Below are positions 1 through 6,144 of a stretch of 6,144 nt of DNA, piece after piece. The stretch covers positions 1 through 6,144 of IMG/VR virus record IMGVR_UViG_3300020029_000019; one strand, written 5' to 3'. Source of the DNA: a virus. Both the position numbers and the translations under genes were made by a program. The number at the start of each line of letters is the position of its first letter. Position 1 is the stretch's first letter. Below the pieces are notes generated by a model, which saw nothing but the letters and a program-made list of their open reading frames with translations, did not search any database and was not told where the DNA came from.

Positions 1-121
1 ACCAATAAATGAACCATAACCAAGCATATCCAACAGCTTGCAAGAGCCATAAGCAAATCCAAAGCCAGCGTCATCCACAGTGCCAGAATCCACTCTATTA
101 CGAATTTCACCAGAAATATTG
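1..121. repeat. Terminal direct repeat, copy 1 (circular wrap-around)
   Basis: Compared base by base, it is identical to 6024..6144 (ACCAATAAATGAACCATAACCAAGC...CACCAGAAATATTG). Confidence 0.97.
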
Positions 122-480
122 ACAAGAGGGGCATACGGGACACTAGTCAATTGTTCTGTATTAGAAACATTGCTAGCCGCGCTAGTCATATAATCCGTCA
201 TTTGAGTAAAAGCTTGCGGAAGCGCACGAGAAATCAAACGTAACGGCACGGCATAGAAGTCATAATACTCCTTAATACGGGTATAAGCAGCAGTATTGAC
301 TGGAACGGTACGAGTAAACCAGTCAGACGAAATACGATATTTCGTACCGGGAATAGCAATTTGCCAATAGCAAGGAAGAATCTCACCAACTTTAGCGGTA
401 AACAGCTTTTTCGAACTTAAGTCAAAAGATGAGCGATGGGTAGGAATTTTCGCTCGGTCCAAAGGATTAAAATCACTCAT
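1..480 (-). CDS. Major capsid protein VP1 (phiX174 F-like), N-terminal part. True start ATG at 480..478; continues across the circular junction into 6023..4776 (1..121 duplicates 6024..6144)
   Basis: Hand translation of the minus strand from 480 gives MSDFNPLDRAKIPTHRSSFDLSSKKLFTAKVGEILPCYWQIAIPGTKYRISSDWFTRTVPVNTAAYTRIKEYYDFYAVPLRLISRALPQAFTQMTDYMTSAASNVSNTEQLTSVPYAPLVNISGEIRNRVDSGTVDDAGF with no stop down to base 1. It is in frame with the 4776..6116 track ORF (387 nt = 129 codons upstream of it). The FDLS..(K)L....G.L.P and YDF..VP.R patterns are typical of Microviridae capsid N-termini. It is absent from the ORF track only because it runs off the window edge. Confidence 0.9.
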   Translation of the reverse strand, partial: MSDFNPLDRAKIPTHRSSFDLSSKKLFTAKVGEILPCYWQIAIPGTKYRISSDWFTRTVPVNTAAYTRIKEYYDFYAVPLRLISRALPQAFTQMTDYMTSAASNVSNTEQLTSVPYAPLVNISGEIRNRVDSGTVDDAGFGFAYGSCKLLDMLGYGSFIG

Positions 481-499
481 AATTAATTAATATTTAAAA

Positions 500-2176
500 T
501 TAAACCATACGGTTGAAAATATTATTAGCATCATTAAGCTTCTTGTGTTTAATCATATTACAACAGAATGTCGAACTACGGTACCGGAGCTGCTCAAGAA
601 TCTGAACCGTTTCACGTGAAATATTCGACAAGACATCAATCTCCTGCCCGTACGCAGGCAACGCAAACATACAATCCGAAATCTCAGGGTATTGGGCACG
701 GATGTTATATGCATCTCGTAAACTTTCATAATTCGCTTTCTTTTCATATTCTATGCCTGTTTTAATGATAAAATTAATACGACCGGAGTAAGCACTAACA
801 TCAGAACCGAAGTCAGGCAAATGCCAGTTACGGAAGAATTTAGAGACATATAGGAACAACCTATACAACTTATTAACAAAAGATTCAGCATCGAAATCAA
901 CAGAACAGTAACCAAACCTAGTAGAACACCGAGAAGCATGTAATACAATCTTGTCATCATCAGTAAGAATAGGATTAACCTTAAGATATTTATAATAAGC
1001 ATTGACAAGGCCTAGAATCGAGTCTCTGTAGTGAATAATCCCGAATCTTGCAACTCTTTGCGGCGTGCGATGCACAGCGAGAAGAATTCGAGCAATCGCA
1101 GCACTATCGTCATTGCGAGCAGACGAGAATCGGGGCAGTAAGGTACGGATATACGACATGGGTGGAGTTGACCGAACACTGACGCCGTTGAAGTTATAGA
1201 TTCGTCCGTTAACGACAGAATCGATTTTTTTCTCAATTTGAGAATAAGGGTCGTCGTCTTCCATGAAATCGCAACCTTTCTCAAAAAATCCGACAGACGC
1301 TCGCGATTTGAGTCTAAACGCGCGGCATGAGCGATATAAAAGGGGAGCAGCACTAAGGCTGTTAACGTAACTCGCAACGTACGAACCAGCTCCACCAGCG
1401 GCACGTTGGAAATCTGAACGACCGAGCTTCCAACTCTTATCGTGACAGTGTCGTAGAACCTCGGAGACTTCGTCCGAGTTTGTGAATAATAAGAGATGAT
1501 AATGCGGGCGGAAATGAACGGGTCCGTACTCACCCACAGCGTAGAAATGTAACGTTTCATAAGAACCTAGTGTTTGGAATAAATGTTTACGTAAACGTTT
1601 AATATAATTCTGAACATCAACATAATTCAGGAAGGGAATAAGGTTATCACGACCGTATTGCGAAGAAACGGGATAGTCCGTTTTGCCAACGGCTTGCGTC
1701 TTATAGATAAAACTACGAATAGCATCCATACTAAGGAACCAATTATCCCTAACAGGGACATATTCCTTAATTTCACGGTCATACGGCACAGTGCCTTGAA
1801 CCTGCTCGAAGAATATATGATGCAACATGGAGTTATCATCACATTTATATTCAGAAACAGAGATATACTGATGATGTTCATCGCCAAAATGAGAATCTCC
1901 TGAAATGCCTAAAACATCCTCATATTCACTATGAAGAACCTTACAATTCATAAGAGGAATGTGTACATTGTCATAAGTAAGAGTTACAAAATAAGAATAC
2001 TTAAAAGCACTTCCAGCGGTCTTCACACGCATGGACGCTTTTTTAGCACGCTTATGGATACAATAATCACATTGACCACAATCCACGGCAATGCGTGCAC
2101 CGGTGTATTTGTTCGTAATAAACGAACGATATTGACAATGGTCAACAGCCTTAAACAAATCAGGAGAAAATTTCAT
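500..2176 (-). CDS. Replication initiation protein VP4 (HUH rolling-circle endonuclease, phiX174 gpA-like)
   Basis: 558 aa, ATG at 2176..2174, TAA at 502..500. Motif I is FVTLTY (aa 63-68). The HUH motif is GEYGPVHFRPHYHLLLF (H225/H227, nt 1504..1496). The two-tyrosine motif is GSYVASYVNS (Y266 nt 1381..1379, Y270 nt 1369..1367), with the Y-x3-Y spacing of the phiX174 gpA catalytic tyrosines. There is an N-terminal Cys cluster, CGQCDYC (aa 33-39). Confidence 0.93.
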   Translation of the reverse strand: MKFSPDLFKAVDHCQYRSFITNKYTGARIAVDCGQCDYCIHKRAKKASMRVKTAGSAFKYSYFVTLTYDNVHIPLMNCKVLHSEYEDVLGISGDSHFGDEHHQYISVSEYKCDDNSMLHHIFFEQVQGTVPYDREIKEYVPVRDNWFLSMDAIRSFIYKTQAVGKTDYPVSSQYGRDNLIPFLNYVDVQNYIKRLRKHLFQTLGSYETLHFYAVGEYGPVHFRPHYHLLLFTNSDEVSEVLRHCHDKSWKLGRSDFQRAAGGAGSYVASYVNSLSAAPLLYRSCRAFRLKSRASVGFFEKGCDFMEDDDPYSQIEKKIDSVVNGRIYNFNGVSVRSTPPMSYIRTLLPRFSSARNDDSAAIARILLAVHRTPQRVARFGIIHYRDSILGLVNAYYKYLKVNPILTDDDKIVLHASRCSTRFGYCSVDFDAESFVNKLYRLFLYVSKFFRNWHLPDFGSDVSAYSGRINFIIKTGIEYEKKANYESLRDAYNIRAQYPEISDCMFALPAYGQEIDVLSNISRETVQILEQLRYRSSTFCCNMIKHKKLNDANNIFNRMV

Positions 2177-2181
2177 AATTA

Positions 2182-2487
2182 CTAACGTTTATCAATCACC
2201 TGACGACGATTACGGTCACCAAACGAAATATGAATAAATGTAGGGTACAATATTAACTGGTCAAACACATGAACATTATCCGAAAAACTATGAATATGTT
2301 CAAGTAACCGGTTATAAGTAGTAGAACCATAAGGTTTCATATCAATAGCCTCACCAAATAGATGCTGGGAATTGAAAACACCACCAGCGGCCTTATTCTC
2401 AGCGATAGAACGCTTGGCACTTGTTATAGTAAAATGCAAGTTAAAGCATAACAAATGCTCAAGAAAATCCATAAGAGTAGAATTCAT
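2182..2487 (-). CDS. Peptidase M15 family (zinc D-Ala-D-Ala carboxypeptidase / LAS-fold cell-wall hydrolase), endolysin-like
   Basis: 101 aa, ATG 2487..2485, TAG 2184..2182. ITSAKRSIAENKAAGGVFNSQHLFGEAIDM matches the M15 signature (itSgyRs...N...GG...S.H..G.A.D). The H-x6-D zinc pair is H42 (nt 2364..2362) and D49 (2343..2341). The C-terminal LILYPTFIHISF supplies the third ligand, H86 (2232..2230). Caveats: the domain is minimal, and Ser rather than Asp follows the last His. Confidence 0.75.
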   Translation of the reverse strand: MNSTLMDFLEHLLCFNLHFTITSAKRSIAENKAAGGVFNSQHLFGEAIDMKPYGSTTYNRLLEHIHSFSDNVHVFDQLILYPTFIHISFGDRNRRQVIDKR

Positions 2488-2567
2488 AAACCAATAGCAT
2501 TAAGGATATAACCAAGAGCGGCAGAAACAGCACCAATCACAATCTTCCAAATATTATTCCTTTTCAT
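2484..2567 (-). CDS. 27-aa single-pass membrane peptide (MKRNNIWKIVIGAVSAALGYILNAIGL), possible holin-like or membrane partner of the peptidase
   Basis: ATG at 2567..2565. The TGA stop (2486..2484) overlaps the peptidase ATG (2487..2485) as ATGA. 18 of 27 codons end in T, matching the genome-wide T-ending codon preference, so this is the coding frame here. A basic N-terminus (KR) is followed by a ~22-residue hydrophobic helix. It is the 3' portion of the 74-aa track ORF 2484..2708. Confidence 0.5.
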   Translation of the reverse strand: MKRNNIWKIVIGAVSAALGYILNAIGL

Positions 2568-2751
2568 TGCTTTGAGTTTTAAGTTCAACGAAATCATTTT
2601 CTTCTTTAATCGAATCCACAATAACAATAAGACCCAACGAAGAAATTCGCTCAGAATAATTTCCAAGACCATCGAGAGAATTAACGATATAAGGCGAAAT
2701 AACATCACGACCTGTGTTTTTGTCCTTAACTGAGATAATAAATTTCTGCAT
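2554..2751 (-). CDS. Hypothetical protein, 65 aa (no recognisable family)
   Basis: ATG 2751..2749 is the first start codon after the non-coding region and promoter candidate. It has strong T-ending codon usage (ATT TCG CCT TAT ATC GTT AAT TCT CTC GAT GGT CTT ...) and a balanced, soluble-looking composition. It overlaps the 27-aa ORF by 14 nt. Confidence 0.6.
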   Translation of the reverse strand: MQKFIISVKDKNTGRDVISPYIVNSLDGLGNYSERISSLGLIVIVDSIKEENDFVELKTQSNEKE

Positions 2752-2801
2752 AATCGTAATAATTTTTAAAGTGTTAATAATGATTGTAACTTCTACTGGA
2801 G

Positions 2802-2832
2802 CAAAGGTATGAGTTTTTTTCGTATTTCCAAA
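2802..2832 (-). promoter_or_regulatory. Candidate Bacteroidota-type promoter (-33 TTTG / -7 TAnnTTTG) driving the accessory block and rep
   Basis: On the minus strand, TTTG (2832..2829) is followed by 19 nt and then TACCTTTG (2809..2802). This fits the Bacteroides sigma-AB consensus TAnnTTTG with an upstream TTTG. It lies ~50 nt upstream of the ATG at 2751, in a stretch that is 24% GC and rich in A-tracts. Confidence 0.35.
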
Positions 2833-2878
2833 ATTTTTTTAGAAATTGTGGGGAGAGGACCATTTGTGATGGAGTGTG

Positions 2879-2946
2879 AGTTGTGCGTTTATGGACAAGA
2901 GTAGGAGAATCCGAGAGGATAACTCGGATTTGCTTCGCACACAACT
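2879..2946. other. Nested inverted repeat
   Basis: The outer stem is AGTTGTGCG (2879..2887) paired with CGCACACAACT (2936..2946): 9 bp with a 2-nt bulge. The inner stem is a perfect 8 bp, AATCCGAG (2908..2915) with CTCGGATT (2923..2930), and a 7-nt loop AGGATAA. Confidence 0.6.
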
Positions 2947-2996
2947 AGGGGCTTCGCTTAATTAACAAGTGGATGTATACAGAGGTGTATAGGCAC

Positions 2997-3036
2997 GGCA
3001 AGGCAGAGGCTGTCTTGCCTTTGCGCGCCGTCGCGC
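2997..3036. other. Two adjacent GC-rich hairpins
   Basis: GGCAAGGCA (2997..3005) pairs with TGTCTTGCC (3011..3019): 9 bp including one G-T at 3003/3013, with loop GAGGC. Next, GCGCG (3023..3027) pairs with CGCGC (3032..3036), with tetraloop CCGT. Confidence 0.6.
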
Positions 3037-3045
3037 TAAAATACC

Positions 3046-3082
3046 GGAGCGGGGCGCTCCTATAAGGAAGTCGCTCCGCTCC
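3046..3082. other. 11-bp hairpin with a competing local fold
   Basis: GGAGCGGGGCG (3046..3056) pairs with CGCTCCGCTCC (3072..3082): 11 bp with one G-T at 3053/3075 and a 15-nt loop. Alternatively, GGAGCG (3046..3051) pairs with CGCTCC (3055..3060) around a 3-nt loop. Confidence 0.6.
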
Positions 3083-3094
3083 ATTTTCGAACAG

Positions 3095-3141
3095 GCCCTA
3101 CGCGGGCGGCGGGTGTATATCGCTCAAACGCCGCGATGGGC
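3095..3141. other. Long-range GC stem
   Basis: GCCC (3095..3098) pairs with GGGC (3138..3141), and CGCGG (3101..3105) pairs with CCGCG (3131..3135). A 2x2 internal loop separates the two stems, which enclose 25 nt including GGGTGTATA. Confidence 0.5.
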
Positions 3142-3219
3142 TTCTAGTCCTGAAGTACGCTATTGTCTACCTAACTTAGGAATAATCTAAAATACACAAG
3201 AAAATAGATTTGCCAACGA

Positions 3220-4323
3220 CTAATAACCGATACCATTAGAACTATTATAAATAGTAGTGTTACGAGGACCGTAATCATTACGAAAAATCTGAGGACCGGG
3301 TCGCATAGCTCCAATTACATTACCGGCACCTTGAAAAATACGAGACGTATAATCTATCGCATTACGCAAACCATATGAATCAAAATCTTTCTTAGTATTA
3401 CCAGCAGACCACTTATAATAATCACGAATAGCCTTATCCTTAGAATACTGGATATTTTTACGATGATTCACATTTTTATAATCCCATAAAGAATCATAAT
3501 ACTGTGTATAATAAGCCATATTCGTAGCACTTACAAGAGCATTAGCAGTACCAGAAGCTATTTCATTAGAAATACGCTGGCCTCGAGCCTGAGCGGCGAC
3601 CAGAATAGCACGCTGAAGTTCAGTCTGGACTTGTTTTTCAGTCAGAGCACCCTGCTGGACAAGATTATAAAGATACTGGCTCTTAGTGAGCAAATCGGCC
3701 TGTTGATTTGCGTCCATATATTTATTAAGCACAGCTTGAGCATCAGATTGTAAGTAAACGTGTGTTGTCTGAGCCGCAGACAATTTACCAGCAGCAACCG
3801 CATTTTCAAGTTCCTGACGTTCTGTAGACTGGTCCAACTCCGCAGAAATGCGACCTGTTTCAGAATTCCAATAACCAGATTCACCGACGCCAATATTCTT
3901 ATAATTGGTATCTCCCATAATTTTCCTTGCCAAAAGAGGAGTAAGAGTCTCAATTTGACTAGATTCAGAAATAGACTTACGAGCCTGGGCAAATGTTGCT
4001 AACGCGGAATCAATGCCAGACAAATCCACATGAACACCTTGCATAGCCGGAGTAGTAGGGATAGTAGCCTGAGGAGAAGGGCCGGGAGAAGCAGAAGTAC
4101 CAGCACCAGTCTGGTGAAGGAATGGATTCAAACCTCGGACAATCTGAGCAGCAGGAGAATTATATTGGTTTTGATAATCAACCATATATTTCTGCCATTG
4201 TCGAGACAGCTGAGCCTCATTTTGGGCAGCCACACGATTCTGTGTAGCGATTAATTCATTAGTCGCATTCGCATTAGACTGCGACATAGCATTAATCATA
4301 CTGCCAAACAACGAACCTATCAT
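3220..4323 (-). CDS. Minor capsid / DNA pilot protein VP2
   Basis: 367 aa, ATG 4323..4321, TAG 3222..3220. A Gly/Ser-rich N-terminus is followed by QNQYNSPAAQIVRGLNPFL, the N.P..Q....GLNP.L signature of gokusho/alpa-type VP2. The centre is Gln/Ala-rich and looks coiled-coil. It sits downstream of VP1 and the scaffold-position gene. Confidence 0.8.
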   Translation of the reverse strand: MIGSLFGSMINAMSQSNANATNELIATQNRVAAQNEAQLSRQWQKYMVDYQNQYNSPAAQIVRGLNPFLHQTGAGTSASPGPSPQATIPTTPAMQGVHVDLSGIDSALATFAQARKSISESSQIETLTPLLARKIMGDTNYKNIGVGESGYWNSETGRISAELDQSTERQELENAVAAGKLSAAQTTHVYLQSDAQAVLNKYMDANQQADLLTKSQYLYNLVQQGALTEKQVQTELQRAILVAAQARGQRISNEIASGTANALVSATNMAYYTQYYDSLWDYKNVNHRKNIQYSKDKAIRDYYKWSAGNTKKDFDSYGLRNAIDYTSRIFQGAGNVIGAMRPGPQIFRNDYGPRNTTIYNSSNGIGY

Positions 4324-4763
4324 TGAACACTAGAGGCAGGGGCGGAATCCGAAGACGGCACTGCCTTATCCGCTGCCAACAAAGACTCAGCATAAGCTGA
4401 AAGTTCAGACTTCTCACTAGCTAATTGCCGCAATACAGCCTGTCGCTCTGACATAGTCTGACAATGTCGAGAAATAATACAATTAAACCGCTCATCATCC
4501 GACATATTATCCATGGAGGTAGACTGAGTAGGATGCATTTGCGCAAGAATATTCTGGACATTCATATCGCCAAGGAGACGACGATATTTTTCTTGGTTGA
4601 GGAGAATGGAAGTCATATCCATATACATATACGAACCGTCAGACAATTTTTCCAACATAACCGAATCATATACACTAGGTTCATAACAAGGATTCCCTTC
4701 AATCAATTCAGGGGTAACAGTATCCTGTTCAAAATCAGGATTAATATAAGCAAAACTTCTCAT
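4320..4763 (-). CDS. Hypothetical acidic protein, possibly an internal scaffolding protein (VP3 position)
   Basis: I place the start at ATG 4763..4761 (MRSFAYINPDF..., 147 aa). The track start at 4775 is a TTG abutting the VP1 stop. The TGA (4322..4320) overlaps the VP2 ATG as ATGA. The protein is rich in Asp, Glu and Ser. The scaffold assignment rests only on position and composition. Confidence 0.6.
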   Translation of the reverse strand: MRSFAYINPDFEQDTVTPELIEGNPCYEPSVYDSVMLEKLSDGSYMYMDMTSILLNQEKYRRLLGDMNVQNILAQMHPTQSTSMDNMSDDERFNCIISRHCQTMSERQAVLRQLASEKSELSAYAESLLAADKAVPSSDSAPASSVQ

Positions 4764-4775
4764 AACAACACACAA

Positions 4776-6144
4776 TTAATAAGGTAAACCATTTCTATCC
4801 AAATTCTGCACAGCATACACTTGGAAATTAACATTACACAATAACTGGTCATAAGCCACGCTATAATGTTCAGTAGTAATCTGAGGCTCAAATATAGAAT
4901 TCAATTGCTGAGGACGAATCTTAAACGATTGATAACTCAATGAAGACTGGCCAGAAACTTGAATCTGAGACCCTTGAAGCGGAGCAGCCCAAGACTGATA
5001 AGCAGCATTAGGACGGAATGCACCATGAACAGTATCTACAGCGGATTTCCATTGCCAATAGCGCAAATTGTATCCAATATTGCCCTGAACAGAAGACGGG
5101 CTATTATTAAGAGTCAAAGCCGAAACAGGCTGCATACCTAACTGGTCAAAAGCAGGTTGAGGGAAATCGGAAACAGACGTACATAACAACTGAGGATTGT
5201 GGCCCTTAAGAGACCAGTCAAGCAAAGGAACAGCATGATAAACGCACATAATAACCTGATGTTCAGCACCGCAATCATAATTAATAACATGGCCAGACTT
5301 AGAGCCTACACCTTTACCAGCAATAACAGCCTGAGAGTTGTCGGCAGTCAAATTAGTGTTCAGAACCTCATTAATATTAATAACATTAGACCAACCACCA
5401 ATATAATGGGCATGGTTACCCATGTACTCGGGGGCTTTAATACCAAATTGAGCGGCCATTTGGTCTGAATAATCCTTGCTAGAGAATTGGACTACTTCTT
5501 TCCAGCGCTGGAGAAATTCAATGGCACGGATTGAGAGAGCGGAAAGGTCTGAATTAAGATGAATCTCACGAACAGAAGAAGAGGACTGCTGAACAACAAC
5601 ATTATCAGAACCACCATTATTCAATACAGGAGAAGATGGAACACCTAAAGCTAAAATACGAGTTGAACCCAAAGTAGGATCATACGAAGAAGGTAAAATA
5701 GCTACCGAACCATATTGAGAAGCAGGAAGAACACCAAGAAAATAGTCTTTAGGATAATTAGCATAGCGGAGACGAATCATATCAGAAGATAATTCGATAG
5801 AACTTTTGCCATCCCAATAATCAACATTATAAGAATAAGCTAAATGTTTCTCCCATTGAGAGTTACTGAAAAAATCAAAATAAATCTTCTGATAAGCAAG
5901 AGCAGGAAGAAGATTCAAGTTAACACTGGTACCATAAATAAGGGGGTTCTGTCCATCAGCCAATGAAGTCGTATCAAGACCAAGATACTGCATAGTAATT
6001 TCTGCCTTCTTATCATTAGAAGTACCAATAAATGAACCATAACCAAGCATATCCAACAGCTTGCAAGAGCCATAAGCAAATCCAAAGCCAGCGTCATCCA
6101 CAGTGCCAGAATCCACTCTATTACGAATTTCACCAGAAATATTG
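4776..6144 (-). CDS. Major capsid protein VP1 (F-like), C-terminal part; same gene as 1..480
   Basis: Track ORF 4776..6116 stays open upstream to the window end. Its listed first M is really an internal GTG (Val) codon in ...EIRNRVDSGTVDD.... Joining 480..122 with 6144..4776 gives 1728 nt = 575 aa plus TAA (4778..4776). The size fits the microvirus jelly-roll capsid family. So do the Gly/Ser/Asn/Tyr-rich composition and the position directly downstream of rep. Confidence 0.9.
   Translation of the reverse strand, partial: NISGEIRNRVDSGTVDDAGFGFAYGSCKLLDMLGYGSFIGTSNDKKAEITMQYLGLDTTSLADGQNPLIYGTSVNLNLLPALAYQKIYFDFFSNSQWEKHLAYSYNVDYWDGKSSIELSSDMIRLRYANYPKDYFLGVLPASQYGSVAILPSSYDPTLGSTRILALGVPSSPVLNNGGSDNVVVQQSSSSVREIHLNSDLSALSIRAIEFLQRWKEVVQFSSKDYSDQMAAQFGIKAPEYMGNHAHYIGGWSNVININEVLNTNLTADNSQAVIAGKGVGSKSGHVINYDCGAEHQVIMCVYHAVPLLDWSLKGHNPQLLCTSVSDFPQPAFDQLGMQPVSALTLNNSPSSVQGNIGYNLRYWQWKSAVDTVHGAFRPNAAYQSWAAPLQGSQIQVSGQSSLSYQSFKIRPQQLNSIFEPQITTEHYSVAYDQLLCNVNFQVYAVQNLDRNGLPY
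6024..6144. repeat. Terminal direct repeat, copy 2 (circular wrap-around)
   Basis: Identical to 1..121. The repeat lies inside the VP1 reading frame and restores it when the ends are joined. Confidence 0.97.

Follow-up and report, generated by a model that had tools for sequence, protein, structure and literature searches.

In the human gut, microviruses belong to the most abundant phages, and to our knowledge it is not known for any of them outside the phiX174/G4 group how the copying of the incoming single strand is started. The stretch of DNA analysed here (hereafter the window) comprises 6,144 nucleotides (nt), positions 1 to 6,144 of the IMG/VR record IMGVR_UViG_3300020029_000019, and its genome is that of a microvirus. 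The sole large non-coding region of this genome, the gap 2752-3219, holds a GC-rich island of hairpins at 2860-3160, with a universal core module of 99 nt that we call M1. This raises the question which function such an island serves, and on which strand and in which nucleic acid it folds. We propose, with rather more confidence than doubt, that the island is a replication-origin element acting as folded single-stranded DNA (ssDNA) on the packaged strand, most likely a complementary-strand origin. We read it as an ssDNA origin because the element is structured and non-coding, would fold at the DNA level on the packaged strand, is built of modular hairpins and has a universal core.

The first ~121 bases of the window recur at 6024-6144, which indicates one circular genome of ~6,023 nt plus an overlap. 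The long open reading frames (ORFs) of the microvirus are all located on the minus (-) strand. As all genes are on this strand and Microviridae package the strand of mRNA (coding) sense, the packaged strand is the reverse complement of the window; it is referred to as the sense strand in the following, and the given strand as the plus (+) strand. A preliminary description of the window had placed the island in the only large non-coding region, and this was confirmed, since genes occupy the remaining - strand. Its GC figures were reproduced exactly (62.5% over 2991-3150, 24.0% over 2741-2840); the GC content of 2860-3160 is 54.2%, compared with 39.6% for the remaining genome. As it had also stated, there is no ORF of at least 60 amino acids (aa) in 2860-3160 on either strand, the longest ones being 56 aa (2774-2944) and 40 aa (2962-3084), both on the - strand. 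A conserved short protein-coding gene was ruled out: the core lengths of 123 homologs are evenly spread over the three residues modulo 3 (33/41/49), so that no reading frame is kept among them.

Covariation of the hairpins and the folded molecule

Both strands of the island fold better than their dinucleotide shuffles, as RNA (z = -5.4 for the + strand and -3.9 for the - strand) and as DNA (z = -4.6 and -5.3). The structure was derived without energy terms, by scanning all column pairs for double changes and then counting pairs, first in 97 and later in 123 sequences; it consists of eleven short local hairpins upheld by covariation (Table 1). In alignment A2 (65 sequences), 98.4% of the cells are paired, as opposed to 26-45% with the partners slid. 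Compensatory changes among related microviruses are frequent in this alignment, with 19 of the 52 pairs changed on both sides and 201 double-change cells; the covariation score is 0.165 vs 0.02-0.04, and none of 500 shuffles reached the observed values. For example, at each of the P2 positions 2910/2928, 2911/2927 and 2912/2926, one Watson-Crick pair takes the place of another in 35-71 sequences. In P5, 64 sequences have A-T and 59 have G-C at 3001/3015, with zero intermediates, and 3002/3014 and 2998/3018 are compensatory as well.

Five inverted repeats had been noted at first. The nested repeat 2879..2946 as well as 2997..3019 and 3023..3036 (4 base pairs (bp), 3025-3036, in relatives) are upheld by covariation. 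The other two had to be redrawn, 3046..3082 as a local hairpin (3046-3060) plus a mini-hairpin (3073-3079), and 3095..3141 as the two local hairpins 3095-3107 and 3119-3137. The extended stem 3046-3056/3072-3082 of the original drawing competes with P7 and P7'. Here, covariation at 3047/3059 (G-C in 74 and A-T in 44 sequences) favours the local P7, and one pair, 3052/3076 (five A-T cases), favours the extended stem; P7+P7' and the extended stem may be alternative conformers.

Structured RNAs normally have many G.U pairs and far fewer A.C appositions. Counting the eleven helices in 123 sequences, we obtained 6,201 Watson-Crick cells, 19 G.T and 23 A.C (of 6,296 cells), and a wobble excess on a transcribed strand, as in structured RNA, was thus not found. 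There are almost no wobble intermediates where G-C and A-T alternate in dozens of sequences, as at 2911/2927 with 71 T-A and 48 C-G. Because G.T and A.C are equally rare on either strand, and G.T is a poor pair in DNA, the hairpins were presumably selected as DNA; this Watson-Crick-only covariation points to folded DNA, not RNA. With these counts, a hint that the given (+) strand folds, drawn in the preliminary description from two G-T pairs, loses its basis. One of these pairs, 3053/3075, is in no supported helix, and the other, 3003/3013, alternates with T-A, G-C and G.A. In addition, an Rfam cmscan at E<=10 gave three sub-threshold matches to eukaryotic small nucleolar RNAs and microRNAs (14-19 bits) and no other family, and ARAGORN detected neither a tRNA nor a tmRNA in the region.

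The same counts bear on the possibility that the island acts as a sense-strand RNA, that is, as a 3'-untranslated region or terminator cluster which ends and stabilises the VP1-VP3-VP2 transcript: sense G.U (A.C on the + strand) accounts for 23 of ~6,300 cells and is not above the opposite class. The island does follow the VP2 stop codon, and P7 followed by GGUAUUUUAG is the only terminator-pattern match of the region, located on the sense strand (P7 plus TATTTTAG in the window). Terminator-like signals are found upstream of M1 on the sense strand, the type of the window being P7 plus GGTATTTTAG, and genomes without P4-P9 have a plain hairpin plus T-run terminator instead, such as the 17-bp hairpin plus T6 upstream of M1 in the M1-only genome L193. 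However, P7 plus GGTATTTTAG matches weakly in a terminator scan (4 T), it is one of 11 hairpins, and M1 is located downstream of it and of the other terminator-like signals. Eleven hairpins, invariant linkers and a conservation above that of any protein go far beyond the needs of termination, and the special stability of the C-GNA-G mini-hairpins described below applies to DNA (PMC13037366, PMC3201870). We consider a sense-strand RNA improbable as an explanation of the element. Of the terminator cluster that was initially listed as an alternative, P7 (3046-3060) with the subsequent GGTATTTTAG stands as a possible terminator, but the whole island is not explained by it.

On the sense strand, a Bacteroidota-type promoter (2802-2832) lies between the island and the 65-aa ORF, and it is predicted to drive the 65-aa ORF, the peptidase and the Rep genes. 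In 87 of 122 genomes its -7 motif TAnnTTTG follows M1 on the sense strand at a distance of ~51 nt, and 83 of these 87 have a correctly spaced TTTG as well. As the island is upstream of the promoter of the downstream operon, it is not the leader of this operon, and the structured leader suggested in the preliminary description is unlikely. The position of M1 in a spacer between terminator and promoter fits a DNA-level role; M1 need not be transcribed.

Conservation, modules and the universal core

The island is kept in more than 200 gut microvirus genomes, the copies of which were collected with three independent conserved motifs. A blastn search of the gap against 50,697 phage records matched 34 records of uncultured microviruses, sampled from lemurs, dogs and humans; the identity of the island in these GenBank records is 76-85%, equal to or above that of the coding DNA, and the island is unannotated in all of them. 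In ~6-kb IMG/VR contigs, conserved-motif search yielded 97 full copies. A further 24 full copies were found, plus five genomes without most or all of the 3' part, and the island is present in 122 IMG/VR genomes. At least 120 contigs of ENA metagenomes carry the island motif, several of them labelled human gut. The island itself retrieved uncultured gut microviruses only, when compared by blastn with the 50,697 phage records, which include phiX174 and M13 (the presence of G4, St-1 and alpha3 was not checked).

Microvirus proviruses are known in Bacteroidota, and a dif/att-like recombination site or host-derived DNA for provirus integration had therefore been put forward at the outset; TGTATA-containing repeats in the island loosely recall the dif core. 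A 17-mer scan of 185,579 GTDB species-representative bacterial genomes gave 73 matches, where ~70 are expected by our own estimate, and nhmmer identified the element in none of these genomes; no copy was found in the plasmids searched either. All real copies are in circular contigs of ~6 kb, and recombination sites do not need eleven covarying hairpins. We find this explanation hardly credible.

Conservation in these genomes peaks in M1. Its mean identity is 87.6% at the nucleotide level, compared with aa identities of 73.7% for Rep, 71.8% for VP1 and 53.8% for VP2 in the same genomes, and M1 identity is still ~77% where that of Rep falls to 56%. Among the 127 genomes scored for modules, M1 was found in 124. 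All five modules are present in 96 genomes, P4 is missing from 23 that otherwise have the full island, four have M1 alone, and one (L184) has M1 and, as the only 3' module retained, the P7 module. The Reps of genomes without most or all of P4-P9 are 76-82% identical to that of the window and lie within the span of full-island genomes (56-87%), so that P4-P9 appear to be dispensable and not tied to Rep. Such modularity, with P4-P9 lacking at Rep identities of 79-82%, fits exchangeable single-strand origins.

In some relatives (L036, L074, L078, L002, L007, L040, L047, L083, L084 and L086) we observed an extra hairpin insert of ~30-45 nt, e.g. TCCTAGATCCATTACTAATAGATCTAGGA, at the M1/P4 boundary (after the equivalent of 2966), and L061 has three tandem copies of GTGTAAGTCCTGGACTTGACAA at this boundary; hairpin modules are evidently being added at the M1/P4 junction. 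Four of the five genomes without most of the 3' part (L193, L184, L217 and L202) have in common a sense-strand TTTTTTCCGAAAGTA(T)CGT between the VP2 terminator and M1, a sequence not present in the fifth, L208/L253. The TTTTTTCCGAAAGTA segment has a C-GAAA-G core of the C-G-closed GNNA type, that is, a further packaged-strand mini-hairpin in a non-homologous segment.

On the sense strand, the order of elements in M1 is P3' (AAGCGAAGCCC), the P1-closed junction, which holds P3, P2 (loop TTATCNT) and 22 unpaired nt with the near-invariant CTTGTCYATAAACG at their end, and then CACAC. The unpaired segment (2886..2907) is a candidate priming or recognition site. The M1 architecture is retained in mar56, whose Rep is 41% identical to that of the window. 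Its P1 has changed from AGTTGTG/CACAACT to ATTTCTA/TAGAAAT, with three compensatory pairs, the P2 stem is wholly replaced and still has 7 bp, and P3 is a GNNA-type mini-hairpin (CCGATAGG). The unpaired M1 sequence of mar56 is identical to that of the window, and P3' is conserved as AAGCGAAGCCC.

Outside M1, the G-rich linker of the 3' part stays near-invariant also in genomes found with an independent motif. We further observed that the 8-mer GGTGTATA (sense TATACACC) occurs twice in exact form, at 2984-2991 and 3112-3119, each copy sitting in a near-invariant unpaired stretch (GGTGTATAGGCACGG and GGCGGGTGTATATCGC). The first copy is invariant even in genomes without its proposed P4 partner. 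The two copies could be paired, iteron-like protein-binding sites.

Folding strand and candidate origin function

Neither pair statistics nor thermodynamics can tell which strand folds; the energy of the supported structure is -34.5 kcal/mol on the + strand vs -35.3 kcal/mol on the - strand. A sequence motif gives a different view. The - strand forms the mini-hairpins GCGAAGC, GCGAAGC and GCGGAGC at P3, P3' and P7', all of the type d(N-C-GNA-G-N'). The d(C-GNA-G) mini-hairpin is extraordinarily stable as DNA and needs a C-G closing pair (PMC13037366, PMC3201870). In the island, N-C-G(N/NN)A-G-N' is found three times on the - strand and not on the + strand (expected 0.29; P=0.003). The sense variants of P3 in 123 sequences are GCGAAGC (70), CCGAAGG (31), ACGAAGT (9), CCGGAGG (6) and CCGTAGG (2). 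These variants leave the closing C-G pair and the loop bases G1 and A3 untouched, differ freely in the middle base and covary in the outer pair, which is exactly the d(GNA) rule. P3' reads GCGAAGC in 115 of these sequences, GCGGAGC in six and ACGAAGT, with a compensatory outer pair, in one. Over 79 genomes, the motif density amounts to 10.25/kb on the sense strand of the island and 1.01/kb on its antisense strand; outside the island it is 1.07/kb and 1.39/kb, respectively.

More distant relatives have the same bias. In mar56, the 593-nt non-coding region contains eight motifs in sense and none in antisense orientation (shuffle mean 0.51, maximum 5 in 20,000). In six genomes with a Rep 26-29% identical, we counted 14 sense vs 2 antisense motifs in the same gap, where ~2.9 are expected (one-sided binomial P ~0.002), and the coding regions of these six genomes have no sense bias of the motif. 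Since the mini-hairpins are on the sense strand, and this is repeated in distant relatives, the predicted folding species is the packaged, coding-sense strand.

According to our proposal, the circular ssDNA genome would enter a Bacteroidota cell (Phocaeicola/Bacteroides) and be coated by the host single-strand binding protein (SSB). The short stable hairpins, including the three d(C-GNA-G) mini-hairpins, would stay folded, presumably by excluding SSB, and would leave the M1 junction (2868-2966) exposed together with its invariant unpaired CTTGTCYATAAACG. The structure may then be recognised either by host DnaG primase directly or by a PriA-type primosome, and an RNA primer would be laid, probably at or near this junction, for the synthesis of the complementary strand, leading to the double-stranded replicative form. 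P4-P9 would be accessory modules that are gained, lost or swapped, and one of them, P7 together with GGTATTTTAG, may in addition terminate transcription of the capsid operon. Complementary-strand priming had already been proposed for the island in the preliminary description. The structural side of that proposal has held, as the structure is real, conserved and covarying, folds as DNA and carries its mini-hairpins on the packaged strand; the priming function itself is what we infer from structure, conservation, covariation and the strand-specific motif.

Precedents for such a role exist. Mini-hairpins mark initiation sites on ssDNA in the primase origins of G4 (GCGAAAGC) and of St-1 and alpha3 (GCGTTAGC), in RSF1010 ssiA (CCGAAGG) and in the N4 virion-polymerase promoters (GCGGAGC/GAA), and DNA with such mini-hairpins binds SSB poorly (PMC13037366). 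In other uncultured microviruses, hairpins upstream of Rep that are conserved and show compensatory substitutions have been tentatively tied to negative-strand initiation (PMC9865509).

Several points weigh against a packaged-strand origin. First, minimum free energies (MFEs) are lower on the + strand, with -109.6 vs -98.0 kcal/mol for RNA (38 of 41 sequences) and -54.7 vs -52.3 kcal/mol for DNA. Second, consensus folding proposed a long-range, G.T-rich helix (2945-2954/3138-3147) that is 98.6% compatible, on the + strand only, and stays paired through C/T and G/A changes at four columns. Both would suit a + strand that is transcribed into a structured antisense non-coding RNA of ~290 nt, the more so as RNA folding of the window gives -125.9 (+) vs -101.1 (-) kcal/mol. 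The lower MFE is, however, explained by the G+T-rich composition of the + strand, which permits extra G.T pairs. The long-range helix was not adopted, as it has zero double compensatory changes and clashes with the compensated P3', and the five genomes without P8-P9 have no partner for it. None of the covariation-supported helices has a wobble excess, the + strand of the window's island is free of mini-hairpin motifs, and no Rfam family was matched. Moreover, the promoter motif is directed into the island in only 19 of 122 genomes, vs 87 of 122 in the opposite direction, so that a consistent promoter for an antisense RNA is lacking. We judge an antisense RNA to be very improbable.

The remaining objections concern the motif and the origin function itself. 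The clade-wide motif counts represent homologous sites, not independent events, and the island has no sequence similarity to any characterised origin in the blastn search of 50,697 phage records. In phiX174, CCCCGAAGGGG, a CCGAAGG mini-hairpin with an extended stem, is located ~25 nt past the viral-strand nick 4305/4306; as it adjoins the nick site, the mini-hairpin motif alone does not separate (-) from (+) origins. Finally, the cultured B. fragilis microvirus phiHBP1 (PV598014.1, Rep 28% identical) has a non-coding region without mini-hairpin motifs. Its gene order is different, and its only non-coding region (208 nt, 27% GC) is upstream of VP1 and contains one 8-bp hairpin (CCCGTCTA...TAGACGGG). 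If the complementary-strand origin of phiHBP1 is in that region, it is of a different design, and phiHBP1 is uninformative for the island.

The phiX174 case leads to the question if M1 is, or also contains, the viral-strand (+) origin, with Rep (VP4) nicking in CTTGTCYATAAACG or in the P2 loop and the hairpins presenting the site. The region would then resemble the intergenic region of filamentous phages, where both origins are side by side. M1 is universal, exceeds every other sequence of the genome in conservation and directly precedes the Rep operon, its invariant unpaired sequence is in a junction framed by covarying stems, and Watson-Crick-only covariation fits a (+) origin too, as does the CCGAAGG-type mini-hairpin beside the nick site of phiX174. 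No other candidate nick site was found: the phiX174-type nick-site motif CTTGATA is not universal, being present in 68 of 116 genomes in sense vs 64 in antisense orientation at positions that are not conserved. Yet the "CTTG" of M1 reads CTCG in roughly a fifth of the sequences, and M1 does not visibly co-vary with Rep (~77% identity when Rep is at 56%, and an identical loop at 41%). A likeness of the M1 loop to the M13 gpII and phiX174 origins was rejected as being at chance level (P=0.41 and P=0.56-0.99, respectively). Known microvirus (+) origins are small (~30 nt) and inside gene A, and large structured non-coding elements of ssDNA replicons are typically (-) origins (phiX174, G4, Ff and the single-strand origins (sso) of rolling-circle-replicating (RCR) plasmids). 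A (+) origin in M1 thus seems rather unlikely to us.

Returning to initiation on the single strand, we tentatively suggest, with less conviction than for the origin role of the island as such, that M1 is a previously undescribed, Bacteroidota-specific single-strand initiation signal, in which a three-way ssDNA junction is braced by d(C-GNA-G) and CTTGTCYATAAACG is acted on by host primase or Rep.

Comparison with known origins, host and genome context

Folded ssDNA origins are already known, and so are short hairpins upstream of Rep in uncultured microviruses (PMC9865509). The complementary-strand origins of G4, St-1, alpha3 and phiK resemble the island in being non-coding hairpin clusters of the viral strand with C-G-closed GNA/GNNA mini-hairpins (PMC13037366), and also in having an invariant unpaired sequence that adjoins the hairpins. 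They differ in size (~140 nt and three hairpins, whereas the island has ~290 nt and 11 hairpins, or a 99-nt three-way core) and in location (between F and G, as opposed to a site between the genes for the pilot protein and Rep). The sequences are not similar, the host of the island belongs to the Bacteroidota, and the role of primase is putative here. The phiX174 primosome assembly site, which starts the complementary strand, is likewise folded intergenic ssDNA of a microvirus (PMC9865509). It is a single hairpin region of ~55 nt, in contrast to the modular multi-hairpin array, again without sequence similarity, and a PriA role is putative for the island.

The Ff phages (M13/f1/fd) are small circular ssDNA phages which also have a single large non-coding region with a series of hairpins. 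The Ff packaging signal lies in this intergenic region together with the (-) origin and the (+) origin, upstream of gpII, and the Rep of the window is in the same Pfam family as Ff gpII (REP_ORF2-G2P). RNA polymerase acts at the Ff (-) origin through long hairpins that mimic a promoter; the island stems of 4-8 bp are probably too short for this, and local alignment of the island with M13 5500-6010 was not significant (P=0.41 for the sense and 0.097 for the other strand). With ssoA, ssoT, ssoU and ssoW of RCR plasmids and with ssiA and ssiB of RSF1010, the island has in common that these are structured, orientation-specific, modular, exchangeable and non-coding ssDNA signals. The CCGAAGG of RSF1010 ssiA is the second commonest variant of P3. 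Of the sso elements, we found only an ssoA-like CS-6 hexamer (TAGCGT, 3162..3157 sense), which lies beyond the conserved core and is not maintained among the aligned sequences.

The hairpins of the reekeekee- and roodoodoo-microviruses, which are uncultured as well, are also upstream of Rep, conserved and subject to compensatory substitutions (PMC9865509). They comprise one or two hairpins of 13-64 nt, in contrast to a 290-nt array with a junction core, and beyond them, the strand of the island could be assigned via the mini-hairpin motif and Watson-Crick-only statistics. New are an element without similarity to described origins, its size, modular layout and three-way core, and its wide distribution among gut microviruses. 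Also new are the Watson-Crick-only signature and a strand-specific mini-hairpin rule that reaches relatives with 26-41% Rep identity.

The island thus provides a concrete, testable candidate, with a 99-nt core, a defined fold and an invariant unpaired 14-mer. The equivalent regions of relatives whose Rep is only 26-41% identical could be recognised by their coding-strand mini-hairpin density; if the proposed function is true, strand-specific GNA/GNNA density would be an origin-finding signature for thousands of uncultured microviruses. Watson-Crick-only covariation offers a way to tell a folded-DNA element from RNA by sequence alone. Vectors of ssDNA for Bacteroides may also profit from the element, used as their origin module.

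Information on the host came from an array of clustered regularly interspaced short palindromic repeats (CRISPR) in the metagenome contig OOAF01000088.1 (125,495 nt; L326:3779-5061), in which the 32-nt repeat GTTTCAATCCACACACCCACGTAGGGTGTGAC occurs 20 times. Genes flanking the array are cas1/cas2 and hydEGF, and the HydF encoded there matches a Phocaeicola dorei protein with 100% identity. Among the spacers, one of 33 nt corresponds to the 5' end of M1 in relatives, with 0-3 mismatches in 48 loci (window equivalent 2864-2896). On the 5' side of the protospacer, 45 of the 48 loci have TTC, which we take to be the type I-C protospacer adjacent motif (PAM). The copy of the window has seven mismatches and no TTC PAM; these differences may reflect CRISPR escape. 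On the basis of the P. dorei spacer and the Bacteroidota-type promoter we place the clade on Phocaeicola/Bacteroides, and the same two lines suggest a host for reconstituting the priming reaction.

The positions of the hairpins, the core and the neighbouring genes are given in Table 1.

Table 1. Features of the island and of the surrounding microvirus genome (window coordinates)
Feature	Position	Strand	Remarks
Whole structured island	2868..3160	-	modular array of 11 short hairpins
M1, universal core module, 99 nt	2868..2966	-	P1 closes junction with P3, P2 and 22-nt unpaired segment
Unpaired M1 junction segment, 22 nt	2886..2907	-	sense CTTGTCYATAAACG (2899..2886) near-invariant; pyrimidine-rich part (2907..2900) variable
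P1 stem, 7 bp	2879-2885 / 2940-2946	-	compensatory 2883/2942, 2884/2941 (4 pair types), 2885/2940
P2 hairpin, 8 bp	2908-2915 / 2923-2930	-	sense loop TTATCNT conserved
P3 mini-hairpin	2932-2938	-	sense GCGAAGC; N-C-GNA-G-N' rule
P3' mini-hairpin	2951-2957	-	sense GCGAAGC; precedes M1 junction on sense strand
P4, optional hairpin TATACA/TGTATA	2976-2981 / 2986-2991	-	weakest helix, 93% of cells paired
P5 hairpin	2997-3002 / 3014-3019	-	outer 6 bp supported; inner part and loop differ between two families
P6 hairpin, 4 bp	3025-3028 / 3033-3036	-	3027/3034 A-T 95, G-C 28, zero intermediates
P7 hairpin	3046-3051 / 3055-3060	-	then invariant sense tail GGTATTTTAG (3045..3036); together terminator-like on sense strand
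P7' mini-hairpin	3073-3079	-	sense GCGGAGC; GCGAAGC in 11 relatives
P8 hairpin, 4 bp	3095-3098 / 3104-3107	-	3098/3104 C-G to T-A in 3; 3096/3106 C-G to G-C in 4
P9 hairpin, 5 bp	3119-3123 / 3133-3137	-	3122/3134 G-C 106, A-T 12, C-G 3
G-rich linker, near-invariant	3104-3120		3108..3120 unpaired, GGCGGGTGTATAT on + strand; holds one of the two GGTGTATA copies
Bacteroidota-type promoter	2802..2832	- (sense)	-33 TTTG (2832..2829), 19 nt, -7 TACCTTTG (2809..2802); flanks island, outside element
VP1, F-type capsid (Phage_F)	4776 wrapping to 480	-	PF02305
151-aa ORF	4320-4775	-	
VP2, pilot protein	3220-4323	-	
65-aa ORF	2554-2751	-	
Peptidase_M15 domain protein, 101 aa	2182-2487	-	PF08291, E=7e-9; just upstream of Rep; "peptidase" in annotation of relatives
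Rep (VP4)	500-2176	-	PF23343, REP_ORF2-G2P

Among the neighbouring genes, the one for the M15 protein presumably encodes a cell-wall endolysin, in contrast to the single-gene lysis proteins of phiX174-type phages.

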